This document shows, one piece after another, positions 5,650-12,762 of a DNA stretch of 58,279 bases (its first letter is position 1; every line of letters begins with the position of its first letter). The stretch is taken from positions 1 to 58,279 of the IMG/VR virus record IMGVR_UViG_3300045988_062123; one strand, 5' to 3'. The DNA comes from a virus. The notes beneath the pieces were generated by a model. That model ran no database searches and was not told the DNA's origin. It saw only the letters and a program-made list of their open reading frames with translations. The translations under genes were made by a program, and so were the position numbers.

Positions 5650-8442
5650 ATGTCAGCCGAATTGCGGCAAAGAATCCAAGAATATGAAAATTACATAAAG
5701 CAAAATGGCATTGACGAAGATGCTATTGAAGCATACGTGCAGGCTTGTCAAGTAGCCATAGAGCGAGAAAAAGATATCAAGTATGGATTAATACTCACTA
5801 GTCGAGCAAAAGAGATTATAGAGCAATTTATCAATGATTCAACCGGGGGAAATTCATGGGACCTGGAAAAATATTGCTTTGAAAACGATGTTTCCTACGA
5901 AATCCTAGATAAATTGTATGAGATTTTGCTTTTGGAAGCCAGAAACAAGGTTGTTGATAGTTTTTTCAGGTACATTGAGAAGAAAAGATTGCCGAAAGAG
6001 CGGTTTTATATGCCGCGGAGAAAGCAATTTATAAAAATTGGTCTTATAGATGCTTTGCAAGGGATGATAGATGACAAATACGACATTTTGTGCATATCTC
6101 TTCCACCGGGGACTGGAAAAGCGCAGCCAATGTATTCAAAAGTGCTTACACCGGACGGATTTGTGAAAATGGGAGATATAAAAGTTGGTTCAAAAGTTGT
6201 CGCTGGAAATGGGAACGTTGCCAATGTCGTTGGAGTTTATCCGCAAGGAAAACGAGATATATATGAAATGACACTTGATGATGGTTCAAAATGCCGTTGC
6301 TCTGACGAACATTTATGGACCGTCCAAAACAGAGAAGATCGTGTCTATGAATCTAAAACAGGAGTTCATAGACAAAGAACAATTACATTGTCTGATTTGA
6401 TGAAAAAATTGACCGTAGAAAGCGGAAAACGGTCTAATTATTCAATCGACTATGTAAAACCGATTGATTTTCCACAAAAAGAGTTGTTATTGCACCCATA
6501 TGTAATGGGAGCATTACTTGGTGATGGTGGCTTGTCTGGTGGTTCGGTTCGATTTTCTACATCAGATATGGAGATTGTTGACAGGATGAACCGTTATCTT
6601 CCAAACGGATATAGACTCAAGCATGTGTCGAACTATGATTACGCAGTTGTTGGATATGAGGGGAACAATACAAAAAATGGAAGCCTTGTTTCTATTGCAT
6701 TGAAAAAATACGGATTGTTTGGCAAAAAAAGCGAAGATAAGTTTATACCAAATGATTATCAGCATGCTTCAAATGAACAAAGATTATGGTTATTGCGAGG
6801 TTTGCTAGATACAGATGGAAGTTGCGAAAAAACAAGTATTGAGTATACTACGTGTTCTGAAGAACTGGCGCAAAATGTCAAAGACTTGGTGCATTCGCTA
6901 GGAGGATATGTGCATGAAACAGTTCGGAATTCTGGATATAAAAAAGACGGAAAATTCATTGAATGCAAACCGTCTCATAGGCTAACGATACAGTTTTTCA
7001 AAGAAAACGAATCTGTATTTGCACTATCAAGACATAAAGAAAAATACAATCCACAAAGAAAAAATGTAAAGCGATTTATAAAGTCAGTTGAGTATATTGG
7101 TAGAGAAGAATGTCAGTGCATTATGATTGATGATCCGTGCCACTTGTATATTACGGATGATTATATCATTACGCACAACACGACAATTGAAAAGTTTTTC
7201 CATTCTGCCGTTATAGGCTGGTATTCGAACGGGTATAACCTTTTTTATTCACATAGTGGCGACATTACCAGAATGTACTATGATGGCGTATATGACATCG
7301 TAACGAACGCAGACGAGTACACATGGAACGAGATATTTCCAAGGCTTAAAGTAACAAGCACAAATGCAAAGTTGGAAACGTTTAACGTCGGAAAGTATAA
7401 GCCGTTCCAGTCTGTTCAATGTACGTCCGTTGGAAGTAAGAATGCCGGAAAAGTGCGTGCGAATAAATTTTTGCTTGTAGATGACATGATCGGTGGAATT
7501 GAAGAAGCATTAAATCCACTTTACCTTGATAAATTGTGGGGAAAATATGCTGTAGATGCAAGACAGAGAAAGATTCCGGACGAGGATGGAAACCCATGTA
7601 AAGAGATACATATTGCTACGAGGTGGAGTGTCCGCGATGTCATTGGACGCATTATACAGGCCTATGAGGGCAACAAAAGAGTAAAAGTAATATCAGTACC
7701 AGACATTGATCCAGTAACTGGAGAAAGCAATTTTGACTTTGAGTTTGGGGGATATACTGTAAAAGATTTTGAAGATATACAGTTACTTATGGACGAAATC
7801 TCTTATCGTTGTCTGTACAAGCAGGATCCAATAGAGCGAGAAGGCTTACTGTTTCCAGAAGATAAGATTCGAAGATATCTCAATTTGCCACACGGAGAAC
7901 CGGAGATTATTACCAGTCAATGCGACACAAAGGGGAAAGGAACAGACTATTTTGTACTTCCAGTATTGCAGAAATATGGAGAAGATTACTATTGCGTCGA
8001 TTGTGTGTGTGATAATACGGCGGATTATGAGATGCAGTATGAAAATTCCGCTAATGTGCTGGTGAATAATCAAGTGCAGGAATGCGAGTTTGAGAGAAAT
8101 GCTGGTGGAGACCGCGTTGGTATGGAAGTAAATAAACGTGTCGAAAGCAAAGGATGGATATGCAATATTACAGACACACCGACAGAGACAAACAAAGAAG
8201 CAAGAATTTTCCAGTGTTCTAACTGGATTTTACAACACGTAATATTCAAGGATCCATCATTGTATAAGCCTAACGAACCATATGGAGTAATGATGTCGTT
8301 GCTAAAACAGTATTCTGTTTCTGGGAGAAAGCAGTTAGATGATGTTCCAGATGTGTTTTCTAACTTTGCGTTAAGAATAACACAAGGTAATAAAGTTGCA
8401 AAAGTAGAAGCAACAGTAAATCCATTTAGGGGGTGTTATTGA
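5650..8442 (+). CDS. terL: Terminase large subunit, interrupted by an intein in the Walker A motif
   Basis: PPGTGK|intein|TTIEKF restores GTGKT after excision. Walker B-like LLVDDMIG follows, then a C-terminal nuclease-type region. The position upstream of the portal gene fits. Confidence 0.88.
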   Translation: MSAELRQRIQEYENYIKQNGIDEDAIEAYVQACQVAIEREKDIKYGLILTSRAKEIIEQFINDSTGGNSWDLEKYCFENDVSYEILDKLYEILLLEARNKVVDSFFRYIEKKRLPKERFYMPRRKQFIKIGLIDALQGMIDDKYDILCISLPPGTGKAQPMYSKVLTPDGFVKMGDIKVGSKVVAGNGNVANVVGVYPQGKRDIYEMTLDDGSKCRCSDEHLWTVQNREDRVYESKTGVHRQRTITLSDLMKKLTVESGKRSNYSIDYVKPIDFPQKELLLHPYVMGALLGDGGLSGGSVRFSTSDMEIVDRMNRYLPNGYRLKHVSNYDYAVVGYEGNNTKNGSLVSIALKKYGLFGKKSEDKFIPNDYQHASNEQRLWLLRGLLDTDGSCEKTSIEYTTCSEELAQNVKDLVHSLGGYVHETVRNSGYKKDGKFIECKPSHRLTIQFFKENESVFALSRHKEKYNPQRKNVKRFIKSVEYIGREECQCIMIDDPCHLYITDDYIITHNTTIEKFFHSAVIGWYSNGYNLFYSHSGDITRMYYDGVYDIVTNADEYTWNEIFPRLKVTSTNAKLETFNVGKYKPFQSVQCTSVGSKNAGKVRANKFLLVDDMIGGIEEALNPLYLDKLWGKYAVDARQRKIPDEDGNPCKEIHIATRWSVRDVIGRIIQAYEGNKRVKVISVPDIDPVTGESNFDFEFGGYTVKDFEDIQLLMDEISYRCLYKQDPIEREGLLFPEDKIRRYLNLPHGEPEIITSQCDTKGKGTDYFVLPVLQKYGEDYYCVDCVCDNTADYEMQYENSANVLVNNQVQECEFERNAGGDRVGMEVNKRVESKGWICNITDTPTETNKEARIFQCSNWILQHVIFKDPSLYKPNEPYGVMMSLLKQYSVSGRKQLDDVPDVFSNFALRITQGNKVAKVEATVNPFRGCY
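6121..7179 (+). mobile_element. Full-size intein (353 aa) with LAGLIDADG homing endonuclease; class 3 (WCT) signature
   Basis: Begins with Ala after GTGK and ends THN|T. Block B is SDEHLW (H221, W223). Block F is ECQCIMIDD with Cys at the usual Asp position. Block G is ITHN. LAGLIDADG motifs are GALLGDGG and LRGLLDTDGS. Confidence 0.85.
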
Positions 8443-8864
8443 TGACAACAAAAGAATATTTAAACCAAATAAGCAGATTGAACCGAATGATAAACAACAA
8501 ATTGGCAGAAATATCTCAATTAAGAGAATTGTCTTGTAGTATTTCTGCAGTGTCAACCGAAGAACGTGTAAAAAATACGCCAAACTTTGATCGTATTGGA
8601 AACACATATGCAAAAATTGATGAAATGGAAAAAAATCTTGATAAGATAATTGATGATTTTACTGAAAAAAAACAAAAAATCATTAGTCAGATTGATAGTA
8701 TGGAAAACGAAAACGTTTATAATGTGCTTTTTTCCCATTACATCGAAAAGAAATCGTTTGAAAAGATTTCCGTAGAAATGGATTATTCCTACAGACAAAC
8801 GATTCGGCTTCACGGAAAAGCATTGCGCCAATTTGAAGAAAAATTCGGTGATGAATATTTGTAA
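8442..8864 (+). CDS. Sigma-70 region-4-like HTH protein (DUF1492-like putative transcription regulator)
   Basis: ATG overlaps the terL stop (TGATG). The C-terminus SFEKISVEMDYSYRQTIRLHGKALRQF resembles a sigma region 4 HTH. Confidence 0.6.
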   Translation: MTTKEYLNQISRLNRMINNKLAEISQLRELSCSISAVSTEERVKNTPNFDRIGNTYAKIDEMEKNLDKIIDDFTEKKQKIISQIDSMENENVYNVLFSHYIEKKSFEKISVEMDYSYRQTIRLHGKALRQFEEKFGDEYL

Positions 8865-9180: not shown

Positions 9181-10614
9181 ATGAACCGTGTACAACTTCA
9201 AGAGATTGTCAAAGGACAGTATGGACGAAAAATTGCATATACAAGCGCGGAATCCATAACTCGTGACAATGTAGTTGAAGTTATTGGAAAATGTATTGGT
9301 GTGTTTTACTGGAATAAATCAGTAATCAAATATTTGTGGGATTACTACAAGGGGGATCAGCCAATACTTTATCGCCAAAAAATAACGAACGAAGATATAA
9401 CCAACAAAGTTGTAGAAAATCATGCGTATGAGATTGTACAGTTTAAGGTTGGACAGACATATGGAGAACCGGTTCAGTTTATCAGTAGGAAAGATGATGA
9501 AAAGGTAAATAAAGCAGTTGATACATTAAATGACTTTATGTCAGATGCTAACAAGCAGGAAAAAGACATTAAGGCTGGAGAATGGCAATCGGCTACTGGA
9601 ACATCTTTTAAAGCGATACAGCCTAAAAATGGAGACATTCCTTTTCGGATAGTGGCACCAACACCGATCAATACGTTTGTTATATACAACGAAAGCACAG
9701 AAGAACCAATTCTTGCGGTGCAGGAACTAAAAGACGAAAAAGGAAAATTCTATAAAATGGCATTTAGTAACACAATGTCATTTAGAATAGTTGATAGCAA
9801 GGTTATTGAATCAAAACTTCACACTTATGGAGAAATTCCCATTGTTGAGTTTCCGAATAACCATGAAAGAATATCAGATATCGAACTTGTTTCTGGTATT
9901 CTGGATTCAATAAACAATATGCAATCAAACAGAATGGATGGCATCGAACAGTTTGTTCAATACTGGGTTAAGTTTATAAATTGTGAAGTTGATGAAGAAA
10001 CATTTAGAAAAATGAAAGAAAGCCATGCGTTAGTAGTAAAGTCCATAAATAAAGACAATAAATCTGATGTTGACATAATGACACAAGAATTGAATCAAAG
10101 TCAATGTCAGGTGGCAAAAGAAGATTTATGGGATAATGCTCTTTCAATTCTGGCAATTCCAAATAAACAGGGAAATACCGGAGGCGATACGCAGGGAGCC
10201 GTAGAATTAAGAAACGGTTGGGATTTCTCAAAGACAAGAGCAAAACTAAAAGATCCAATTGTTAAAACGTCGGAAAAAAGGCTTGCGGTAGTTGCACTTA
10301 ATGTAATAAGACTTTCTGGTGAAGACCTAGGAATTTCTGTTAGAGACTTTGACGTGCAGATAAATCATAGTCCGCAAGATAATATGTACACAAAGGCACA
10401 GACATTGACCGTTCTTTTGCAAGCCGGAATACATCCAATTATTGCAATCAAAACGGTTGGATTGTGGGGCGATGCAGAAAAGACGTTTCTTTTATCGAAG
10501 CCTTATATTGACAATATTTACAAAACAATTGACGATGCAGAAGAGCAGGAAGTTAAGGCTCAAAACATAGTGGATCAAATAAATAATAAGCAAAATGAAA
10601 CAGTTACCGAGTAA
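9181..10614 (+). CDS. Portal protein (SPP1 Gp6-like)
   Basis: 477 aa in the position after terL. The N-terminal YLWDYYKGDQPILYRQK-type motif is typical of SPP1-family portals. Confidence 0.85.
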   Translation: MNRVQLQEIVKGQYGRKIAYTSAESITRDNVVEVIGKCIGVFYWNKSVIKYLWDYYKGDQPILYRQKITNEDITNKVVENHAYEIVQFKVGQTYGEPVQFISRKDDEKVNKAVDTLNDFMSDANKQEKDIKAGEWQSATGTSFKAIQPKNGDIPFRIVAPTPINTFVIYNESTEEPILAVQELKDEKGKFYKMAFSNTMSFRIVDSKVIESKLHTYGEIPIVEFPNNHERISDIELVSGILDSINNMQSNRMDGIEQFVQYWVKFINCEVDEETFRKMKESHALVVKSINKDNKSDVDIMTQELNQSQCQVAKEDLWDNALSILAIPNKQGNTGGDTQGAVELRNGWDFSKTRAKLKDPIVKTSEKRLAVVALNVIRLSGEDLGISVRDFDVQINHSPQDNMYTKAQTLTVLLQAGIHPIIAIKTVGLWGDAEKTFLLSKPYIDNIYKTIDDAEEQEVKAQNIVDQINNKQNETVTE

Positions 10615-11645: not shown

Positions 11646-11685
11646 AAATTGACCGTAATATTTATCGGTAGAAAGAGAGGATAAA

Positions 11686-12762
11686 ATGAATATTAGAGAT
11701 GCTTATAGTGCAAAATCAATTGCGCTTGTAAATACAGAAGTAGCAAGTAATGCAATTTCTTATCTTGGTGCTGGTCTTTTTCCGGCAAAAAAGAAAATGG
11801 GGCTTGATCTGAAATGGATTAAAACTTCAAAAGGTCTTCCGGTTTCTCTTGCACCATCAAATTTTGATGCGGTATCTACGCTTAGAAGCCGTGAAGGATT
11901 TAAACTGACAGAAACGGAAATGGCTTTTTTCCGTGAATCAATGCTGATCAAAGAGGCAGACGAGCAGGAAATCATGCGCGTGAAAGACAGCACTGATCCG
12001 TATGCGACAGAAGTGCTGAGCAGAATTTTTGATGATGCCAATACTCTGATTGATGGAGCAAATGTTGTTCCAGAACGTATGATTATGCAGTTGCTGGCAC
12101 CATCTGACGGACACCCTAAAATTTCTATTCAGGCAAATGGCGTTACATATGCTTACAACTATGATCCAAATGGAGATTATGAAACAAACAATTATGCTGA
12201 TTTGACGGATTCGTCTACAGATGTATGGAGCGATACAGCCAATTCAGATCCTATGGATGATGTGGCTGTTGCACTTGATGCGGTTGAAGCAAAGACGGGA
12301 GAAAGACCGTCTATCATGATTGTTTCTCGTAAAACAATGGATTACTTGAAGCAGAATAAAAAAATTAAATCTGCTATTCTTTCGCAGAATTCAACAGCAA
12401 ATGTGTTTATGAATGACAATAGAGTTAAAGAAGTTTTCTCAAACGAACTTGGAATCAGCATTATTGTTTATTCTAAACAGTATAAAAATGAATCTGGTGT
12501 TGCTTCAAAATTTTATCCGGATGGATTTGCGACACTTATTCCTGCCGGTAGTCTTGGTAATACTTGGTATGGCACCACGCCAGAAGAAAGAACACTTATG
12601 GGAAGCGGAGAAGCTGATGTTTCGATTGTTAATACTGGTGTTGCTGTATCTGTAACTACTACAAGTGATCCGGTACAGACAAAAACAACGGTTTCGGAAA
12701 TTGTTCTTCCTTCTTATGAAAGAATGGATAGCACATATGTTATTAAGTGCTATACAGCGTAA
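11686..12762 (+). CDS. Major capsid protein
   Basis: 358 aa immediately after scaffold and decoration genes, with RBS AGAGAGG. Size and position are typical. Family not verified. Confidence 0.8.
   Translation: MNIRDAYSAKSIALVNTEVASNAISYLGAGLFPAKKKMGLDLKWIKTSKGLPVSLAPSNFDAVSTLRSREGFKLTETEMAFFRESMLIKEADEQEIMRVKDSTDPYATEVLSRIFDDANTLIDGANVVPERMIMQLLAPSDGHPKISIQANGVTYAYNYDPNGDYETNNYADLTDSSTDVWSDTANSDPMDDVAVALDAVEAKTGERPSIMIVSRKTMDYLKQNKKIKSAILSQNSTANVFMNDNRVKEVFSNELGISIIVYSKQYKNESGVASKFYPDGFATLIPAGSLGNTWYGTTPEERTLMGSGEADVSIVNTGVAVSVTTTSDPVQTKTTVSEIVLPSYERMDSTYVIKCYTA

Follow-up and report, generated by a model that had tools for sequence, protein, structure and literature searches.

The terminase large subunit gene (terL) of IMG/VR virus record IMGVR_UViG_3300045988_062123, a stretch of 58,279 nucleotides (nt) that was analysed at its full length and is referred to here as the window, is interrupted in frame by a 353-residue insert. 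This insert bears the signature of a class 3 intein, the type characterized by a Trp-Cys-Thr (WCT) triplet, and contains a predicted LAGLIDADG endonuclease. We consider it probable, at roughly 0.8, that the insert is a mobile intein that splices via Cys333, restoring the GTGKT of the Walker A motif in TerL, and that the freed LAGLIDADG endonuclease homes into intein-free terL alleles. This reading draws on the anatomy of the insert, its boundaries, fold, conservation, polymorphism, and patterns of divergence and co-conversion; the order of the splicing steps and the endonuclease activity are predicted by analogy with characterized relatives.

The insert and the host protein are encoded by a single uninterrupted open reading frame (ORF) with the following parts. 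Intein residues are numbered from Ala1, and a slash within a motif marks the insertion site.

5650-8442, + strand: terL precursor ORF, 930 amino acids (aa) with the intein, stop codon included.
5650-6120, + strand: N-extein, aa 1-157, whose last residues form the start of Walker A (GTGK at nt 6109-6120).
6121-7179, + strand: intein, 353 aa, from Ala1 to His352-Asn353, coinciding exactly with the gap against intein-free TerLs.
7180-7182, + strand: Thr+1 (ACG codon), the first C-extein residue and the Thr of Walker A.
7180-8442, + strand: C-extein, with Walker B (FLLVDD) at 7468-7485, IHIATRW at 7606-7626 and the nuclease domain at about 7924-8232.

In the precursor, ILCISLPPGTGK is followed by 353 residues that open with AQPMYSKVLTPDGF and close with DDYIITHN, and then by TTIEKFFHSA. 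More specifically, PPGTGK ends at nt 6120, the insert starts with AQPMYS and ends with ITHN, and TTIEKF starts at nt 7180, the HN/T junction occupying nt 7174-7182. In precursor numbering, the insertion site lies between Lys157 and Thr511 of Walker A. An earlier note on this DNA had placed the insert at 6121-7179 between PPGTGK and TTIEKF, which proved accurate to the base; the Ala start and the terminal HN followed by Thr+1 that it described are likewise present in the sequence. Excision of the insert in silico yielded PPGTGKTTIEKF and a predicted spliced TerL of 577 aa. The note's claim that removal of the insert restores Walker A also holds, and intein-free alleles show the same join.

Intein-free TerL homologues were located by tblastn against GenBank phages. 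In a three-way alignment of the TerLs of the window, Dulem virus 39 and Clostridium phage Maintenon, the gap comprised precisely the 353 residues. Both of the latter proteins are intein-free, that of Dulem virus 39 reading GAGK/TTIEKF, with 77% identity over the exteins, and that of Maintenon reading GTGK/STAG. The residues on the two sides of the junctions differ (K versus N and A versus T), so the boundary is not shiftable. When the ligated exteins were used as a query, 115 of the 120 best cluster representatives were intein-free and 573-581 aa long. The closest of these, P0121, differed from the predicted spliced product by one change, N62K, 95 residues from the junction. The intein was present in the other five: P0188, a 930-aa protein with 10 differences from that of the window, and P0202-P0205, each of 926 aa. 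The P0188 cluster comprises 147 member sequences, and the same allele occurs on several independent contigs. A group I intron and a free-standing endonuclease gene were ruled out, as the reading frame runs through the insert and the termini are of the intein type. The GC content of the insert (0.35-0.41) is no different from that of its flanks.

Sequence comparisons identify the host protein as a phage TerL with a Walker A/B ATPase, a C-terminal RNaseH-like nuclease and a portal gene nearby. The spliced sequence matched phrog_38 (PHROG 38, terminase large subunit) with an E value of 7e-37 and Pfam PF22530 (Terminase-T7 RNaseH-like nuclease) at 28.8 bits, the cut-off being 27. Downstream of terL are the genes for the portal (9181-10614) and then the major head protein (11659-12759). 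An hhalign comparison with T7 gp19 was weak (E = 0.029) and in register, with PPGTGKT on RGIGKS (Walker A), FLLVDD on IIIADD (Walker B) and IHIATRW on IYLGTPQ (C-motif). No solved relative of the spliced TerL was found in a sequence search of the PDB, and searches across the 58-kb window found no second terL and no second intein. With 353 residues between Lys157 and the Walker A Thr, the 930-aa precursor would be unable to form the P-loop. As the genome has a single terL, it is a sound inference that DNA packaging depends on splicing of the intein.

A search with the insert returned 205 homologues at E ≤ 1e-3, the best at 8e-138, which is far beyond chance. Residue columns and conservation were read from a MAFFT alignment of the window intein, 89 full-length homologues and MP-Be, the prototype class 3 intein, which is the mycobacteriophage Bethlehem 'DnaB' intein of Tori et al. 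2010 (PMC2807308) and is located in Bethlehem gp10. The published numbering of MP-Be was reproduced on its extraction from gp10 (341 aa; His65, Trp67, Cys320, Thr339 and Asn341). The splicing residues of the window intein were assigned as follows.

6121-6123, + strand: Ala1 (GCG codon), block A position 1, non-nucleophilic; Ala in 81 of 89 homologues.
6310-6318, + strand: block B His64-Leu65-Trp66 (B:10 to B:12), aligned with MP-Be His65 and Trp67 and with HQW of MchDnaB1 (PDB 6rix).
7117-7119, + strand: Cys333, block F position 4 (F:4), proposed first nucleophile, aligned with MP-Be Cys320 and the block F Cys of MchDnaB1.
7171-7179, + strand: block G Thr351-His352-Asn353 (G:5 to G:7), aligned with MP-Be Thr339-His340-Asn341.

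These residues lie in the motifs SDEHLW (61-66), ECQCIMIDD (330-338) and THN (351-353). His64, Cys333, Thr351, His352 and Asn353 are invariant in all 89 homologues, and Trp66 is present in 82, the remaining seven carrying Asn. The AQP start is similarly conserved beyond Ala1 (Gln2 in 86/89, Pro3 in 88/89), and the residue following the intein is Thr or Ser in nearly all homologues. The earlier note had claimed a Trp two residues past the block B His, a Cys in block F and a Thr before the terminal HN. The alignment agrees on each: Trp66 pairs with Trp67 of MP-Be and Thr351 with Thr339, and the second Cys of ECQC, Cys333, is selected where the note had left the choice unspecified. All three residues fall inside blocks B, F and G. 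Overall, these data support the assignment of the insert, by its signature, to class 3, following the definition of Tori et al. 2010, which Tori and Perler 2016 (PMC5222942) repeated. The class 3 chemistry, in which Cys F:4 acts first and is absolutely required and a block F branched (thioester) intermediate forms, would follow by analogy. Compared with that of L093, another intein-plus allele, the window intein shows 20 synonymous codon changes and 10 non-synonymous ones, none at catalytic positions, which is consistent with purifying selection.

In a PDB sequence search, the top matches to the splicing domain were the gp41-1 intein (E = 1e-11) and its engineered WCT variant (E = 9e-10), followed by the class 3 inteins MchDnaB1 (6rix/6riy; 4e-6) and Msm DnaBi1 (6bs8; 1e-3). 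In the MchDnaB1 alignment, EHLW of the query fell on HQW, and the block F Cys (vpvrCvevd) was matched by the second Cys of ECQC. On grouping with other class 3 inteins, the signs are mixed: Cys F:4 is present in all 89 full-length homologues and class 3 structures are among the PDB matches, but the top match by sequence is the class 1 intein gp41-1. Curated intein profiles matched below threshold (range E 0.03-0.1), at E = 0.054 for Pfam Intein_splicing and 0.032 for NCBIfam TIGR01445, so the intein assignment rests on the PDB sequence matches, the family alignment and the fold. Of the profile matches proposed in the earlier note, that to LAGLIDADG was obtained (LAGLIDADG_3, 8.5e-11, over intein residues 219-277) and that to the Pfam intein profile stayed sub-threshold.

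Two CxC pairs were also observed, C58-R-C60 in block B (6292-6300) and C331-Q-C333 in block F (7111-7119), with Cys340 nearby (7138-7140). Cys60 is present in 61 of the 89 homologues and Cys331 in 51. By analogy with the redox switch of Msm DnaBi1, which runs through Cys48, residues Cys58, Cys60, Cys331 and Cys340 may be disulfide or metal partners of the catalytic Cys333.

The insert, extended by five residues on each side, was modelled with AlphaFold2 from a 68-sequence alignment; the model had a mean predicted local distance difference test score of 93.9 and a predicted template modelling (TM) score of 0.92. The top Foldseek matches in the PDB were to PI-SceI (E = 5e-19, TM 0.73-0.76), and full-length matches also included the TliVMA and PhoVMA inteins and PI-PfuI. 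By domain, the endonuclease matched I-DmoI and the splicing domain matched gp41-1, MchDnaB1 and Msm DnaBi1. The modelled fold is thus that of a bifunctional intein and LAGLIDADG endonuclease with a HINT splicing domain. The earlier note had reported two LAGLIDADG motifs, and both were found with their catalytic Asp residues, in a predicted fold that matches PI-SceI.

6502-6528, + strand: LAGLIDADG motif 1, VMGALLGDG, residues 128-136, with catalytic Asp135 (84 of 89 homologues); model helix 131-140.
6793-6819, + strand: LAGLIDADG motif 2, LRGLLDTDG, residues 225-233, with catalytic Asp232 (88/89) and Asp230 (89/89).

Both LAGLIDADG helices close with Asp-Gly, Lys207, Pro210 and Tyr213 are invariant in the 89 homologues, and the sequence shows no sign of decay. 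Homology and the population patterns described below suggest that the endonuclease is active.

The presence and absence of the intein is polymorphic among TerLs that are ~99% identical. Comparison of the intein-plus alleles of the window and L007 revealed 6 differences in 1059 positions of the intein (0.57%) and 54 in 1734 of the exteins (3.1%; Fisher P = 1e-6). Between the window and L093, the corresponding values were 2.8% and 7.5% (P = 1e-7). In these two independent comparisons the intein is therefore 3-5 times less diverged than its own exteins, which is not predicted by vertical inheritance. The closest intein-free alleles, L004-L006 from human gut metagenomes, differed from the window at 49 of 1734 nt. 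Eleven of the 49 differences, all synonymous, occurred at extein nt 444-477, around the junction at 471/472 (binomial P = 4e-9 for 11 of 49 inside 36 nt of the junction). A second intein-free set, L096-L099, showed the same clustering at the junction, with 12 differences. These clustered synonymous changes look like a short, putative co-conversion tract from double-strand-break repair, with two arms.

6093-6120, + strand: putative co-conversion tract, upstream arm, with 9 synonymous changes relative to the nearest intein-free alleles.
7180-7188, + strand: putative co-conversion tract, downstream arm, with 2-3 synonymous changes.

The intein-plus flank is TGCATATCTCTTCCACCGGGGACTGGAAAA upstream and ACGACAATT downstream of the intein, and the corresponding sequences in the closest intein-free alleles are TGTATATCATTGCCGCCCGGAACAGGAAAG and ACAACGATT. 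Joined without the intein, the intein-plus flank reads CCACCGGGGACTGGAAAA followed directly by ACGACAATTGAAAAG. This flank is common to three intein-plus alleles of somewhat different backgrounds. An exact-match search of IMG/VR found no empty site with the intein-plus-type flank, and the L004-type flank was likewise not found. A degenerate-pattern search of IMG/VR recovered 85 intein-free alleles, none of which (0/85) had the intein-plus flank. A related TerL resembling that of Dulem virus 39 (P0104; L095, 1001-2464) has the same Lys/Thr site occupied by a mini-intein from this lineage, 142 aa long, from which the endonuclease domain has been deleted. With empty, full and mini-intein alleles observed, all three states of the homing cycle are present. 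Overall, the population data point to recent homing of the intein.

The possibility that endonuclease pressure had raised synonymous diversity at the target in intein-free alleles was considered and rejected, pi being 0.065 at the site versus 0.119 gene-wide. One further terL product, P0003 (367 aa, on an 18.6-kb contig), matches that of the window, apart from 2 substitutions, as far as intein residue ~183. Past this point the sequences part, and P0003 terminates within the endonuclease domain, owing either to a frameshift in a decaying allele or to an error of assembly.

We propose the following scheme for the intein. In the translated 930-aa precursor, the intein would fold, and Cys333 (F:4), aided by His64 and Trp66, would attack the Lys157-Ala158 bond, moving the N-extein to the thiol of Cys333 to yield the block F branched intermediate. 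The N-extein would then pass to Thr+1, generating the block G branched intermediate. Cyclization of Asn353, with the help of His352, would release the intein, and an O-to-N shift would establish a normal Lys-Thr bond in the 577-aa TerL. The free intein would cut intein-free terL alleles met in co-infection or in prophages, and repair from the intein-bearing copy would transfer the intein together with ~30 nt of flank.

Several points weigh against this scheme. Its splicing chemistry is carried over from other inteins by analogy, and the intein-plus flank is distinguished by 11-12 positions from the closest intein-free alleles, which may not be cleavable targets. In addition, the class 3 signature alone could in principle accompany a class 2 route, as pointed out by Tori and Perler (PMC5222942). 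In such a route, Thr+1 would attack the Lys157-Ala158 bond directly, and Cys333 would only assist or contribute to structure, as the Asp usual at F:4 does; Ala1 is also a hallmark of the class 2 KlbA inteins. However, the WCT triplet is absent from class 2 inteins, the described examples of which rely on Cys+1 (Mja KlbA; PMC2807308), whereas the window intein has Thr+1 and the complete triplet. Moreover, all WCT inteins tested, namely MP-Be, Msm DnaB-1, Mle DnaB as well as Bvi IcmO, absolutely need Cys F:4 (PMC2807308, PMC5222942), and the invariance of Cys333 among the 89 homologues also argues against the class 2 route, which we regard as highly improbable. Finally, the triplet is no guarantee of splicing, as WCT grafted onto the related class 1 gp41-1 did not splice (Beyer et al. 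2020). That result would also fit a decayed or splicing-dead intein in a non-functional terL allele, the contig then representing a defective phage or prophage remnant, as would the minority status of the intein-plus allele and the truncation of the related P0003 product. By contrast, the 930-codon ORF is unbroken, the catalytic residues for splicing and for DNA cleavage are all present and conserved, and synonymous changes between alleles outnumber non-synonymous ones. The recurrence of the allele on independent contigs, the 147 members of the P0188 cluster, and a genome that is a complete circle with a full structural module are also at odds with decay. A dead intein accordingly seems very doubtful to us.

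An intein that splices but whose endonuclease is inactive is somewhat easier to envisage, though still unlikely. Its inheritance would be vertical only, and ordinary divergence of phage lineages, or recombination between them, would account for the flank differences. The absence of the intein-plus-type flank from the 85 IMG/VR intein-free alleles, which leaves no obviously susceptible target, and a synonymous diversity that is not raised at the site are consistent with such inactivity. However, conservation extends to both LAGLIDADG Asp residues and to Lys207, Pro210 and Tyr213, and the intein is significantly less diverged than the exteins in both comparisons. Further, nearly all synonymous sites differ in the 30 nt by the junction, whereas the rest of the gene is 97% identical. 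We therefore favour a mobile class 3 intein with an active endonuclease.

Comparison with known systems indicated that the terL intein is a further example of a rare but described type, as class 3 LAGLIDADG inteins in TerL and the K/T P-loop site are both documented (Tori et al. 2010; Kelley et al. 2016). Tori et al. (PMC2807308) already noted that class 3 inteins occur in large terminase subunits and that ATPase P-loops are where most of them lie. Bethlehem gp10 is annotated in GenBank as a terminase large subunit, so that MP-Be and the window intein share a phage TerL host, as well as a LAGLIDADG domain and a similar size (341 versus 353 aa). In aligned columns, they also share a non-nucleophilic residue 1, His B:10, Trp B:12, Cys F:4, Thr G:5, the His-Asn end and Thr+1. 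They differ in that sequence similarity is low and MP-Be starts with Pro, whereas the window intein starts with Ala-Gln-Pro. The Bethlehem N-extein ends in SQDQ, indicating that the MP-Be site is not a GK/T Walker A junction. The hosts differ as well: MP-Be resides in a Terminase_1-type TerL of an actinobacteriophage, and the window intein in a TerL with a T7-like nuclease domain from a gut Bacillota-type phage. In Kelley et al. 2016 (PMC5050341), the Lys/Thr P-loop site of mycobacteriophage TerL is presented as the classic insertion point. As described there, the TerL1-a inteins lie, like that of the window, between the invariant Walker A Lys and Thr, but in another TerL family and phage group, and the class 3 examples given are TerL1-c, -d and -e.

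Msm DnaBi1 (6bs8) and MchDnaB1 (6rix) resemble the window intein in their class 3 signature, Ala1, and P-loop junction, with GK/A at the start and HN/T or HN/S at the end. Unlike the latter, they are mini-inteins without an endonuclease and reside in a cellular helicase. The class 1 gp41-1 (6qaz) and its WCT variant (6riz) share with the window intein ~40% identity over 70 aa of the N-terminal half, an xEHLF or xEHLW block B and the THN end. By contrast, gp41-1 has Cys1, Phe B:12 and Asp F:4, is naturally split and lacks an endonuclease. PI-SceI and VMA-type inteins (1ef0, 1lwt, 7qsu) have the same two-domain arrangement, a LAGLIDADG endonuclease nested in a HINT splicing domain, but belong to class 1 (Cys1), show 15-18% identity and, in the case of PI-SceI, contain an additional region for DNA recognition. 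A 2025 survey (bioRxiv 10.1101/2025.01.02.630785) reported 287 class 3 inteins in actinobacteriophages, in which TerL is a principal intein host. What is somewhat new here is the setting, a human-gut phage, and an unusually clean natural population contrast.

The terL intein leaves the knowledge of splicing mechanisms unchanged. It adds a member from a human-gut phage to the class 3 inteins, which are known mostly from actinobacteriophages and actinobacteria. The intein-free alleles with ~99% identical exteins, the intein-plus alleles on slightly different backgrounds and the mini-intein allele provide a clean natural control and, together, a ready system in which a natural phage population can be used to measure homing, co-conversion and the decay of inteins. 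The intein and its endonuclease are also a candidate new class 3 pair for protein engineering.

Nearly all of the 205 homologues open with AQP after GxGK and close with THN/T. According to precomputed Pfam assignments, their exteins are mostly not terminases, and include AAA (PF00004), PhoH (PF02562), DnaB (PF03796), AAA_24, IstB-like, UvrD-like and DnaA/DarB-like proteins. A second insertion site occurs in PhoH-like proteins, with MRGR followed by AQP or SQP. The closest non-TerL relatives of the window intein are in AAA ATPases, at 53% identity, and inteins of distant TerLs are equally close, at 51-54%. This host range fits the clustering of inteins in P-loops (Novikova et al. 2016) and the proposal that similar DNA at nucleotide-binding sites allows extein switching (bioRxiv 10.1101/2025.01.02.630785). 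A broader and speculative idea, to which we attach little weight, is that the AQP to WCT lineage is one spreading clade. Its endonuclease would target Walker A DNA (GxxGxGK/T), jump between the unrelated ATPase genes for TerL, AAA+, PhoH, DnaB, UvrD-like and DnaA/DarB-like proteins, and possibly now be sweeping terL in this population of gut phages. In the same vein, Cys333 with Cys331, Cys340 and Cys58/Cys60 could make TerL maturation and packaging redox- or metal-conditional, as in Msm DnaBi1.

Several members of the family depart from the common pattern. Seven of the 89 homologous inteins (P0035, P0056, P0064, P0065, P0067, P0078 and P0087) have Asn for Trp at B:12 (EHLN or GHLN). The same seven have HTY (YTY in P0065) for HLY in block F, and retain Ala1, Cys F:4 and Thr G:5. 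In these seven the class 3 triplet occurs in a natural 'NCT' form, with which the block F change seems to covary. Four members of the WCT family, P0082, P0086, P0100 and P0101, start with Ser or Cys, the first three being at the second, PhoH-like site (MRGR/SQP). Similar WCT inteins, which have an N-terminal nucleophile, were assigned to no class by Tori et al. The P0090 intein (AQPLSSKVLT to THN/TNPHKL) is in a protein with PF06841, and its upstream flank ends in REGGWN, so the junction is not of the GK/T P-loop type. For residues 5-76 of the window intein (6133-6348), in the N-terminal splicing half, the match to gp41-1, a class 1 split intein (E = 1e-11, ~40% identity), was closer than that to the class 3 inteins of mycobacteria (4e-6). 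This nearness is relevant to the argument of Beyer et al. 2020 that divergence from class 1 may not be how class 3 inteins arose.

The window has an exact 99-nt terminal direct repeat (1-99 and 58181-58279), indicating a circular, complete assembly of 58,180 bp, and the genome carries a full structural module. A megablast search of the first 25 kb against GenBank phages returned a short rtcB match only, and thus no close cultured relative at the DNA level. Relatives come from human gut metagenomes. A genome scan found an intein-free TerL in a Lachnospira intestinalis isolate (L105) and an intein-plus TerL in a Lachnospiraceae metagenome-assembled genome (L106), from which the host is probably a Lachnospiraceae bacterium.

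Directly upstream of terL is a gene for an RtcB-type tRNA-splicing ligase (4346-5554, + strand; phrog_1075, E = 2e-127), and the rtcB-terL order is also present in intein-free relatives. No tRNA genes were found in the window. An ORF at 8433-8864 (+ strand), between terL and the portal gene, overlaps the terL stop codon and matches the phrog_36 transcriptional regulator (E = 1e-18); its position is kept in relatives, as a 140-aa gene. The minus strand contains short, unsupported ORFs only. Toward the end of the window, a full-length type II hammerhead ribozyme (Rfam RF02276) was detected at 57720-57784 on the - strand, scoring 45.3 bits versus a gathering score of 37 (E = 4e-6). This hammerhead is the sole Rfam match in the window.

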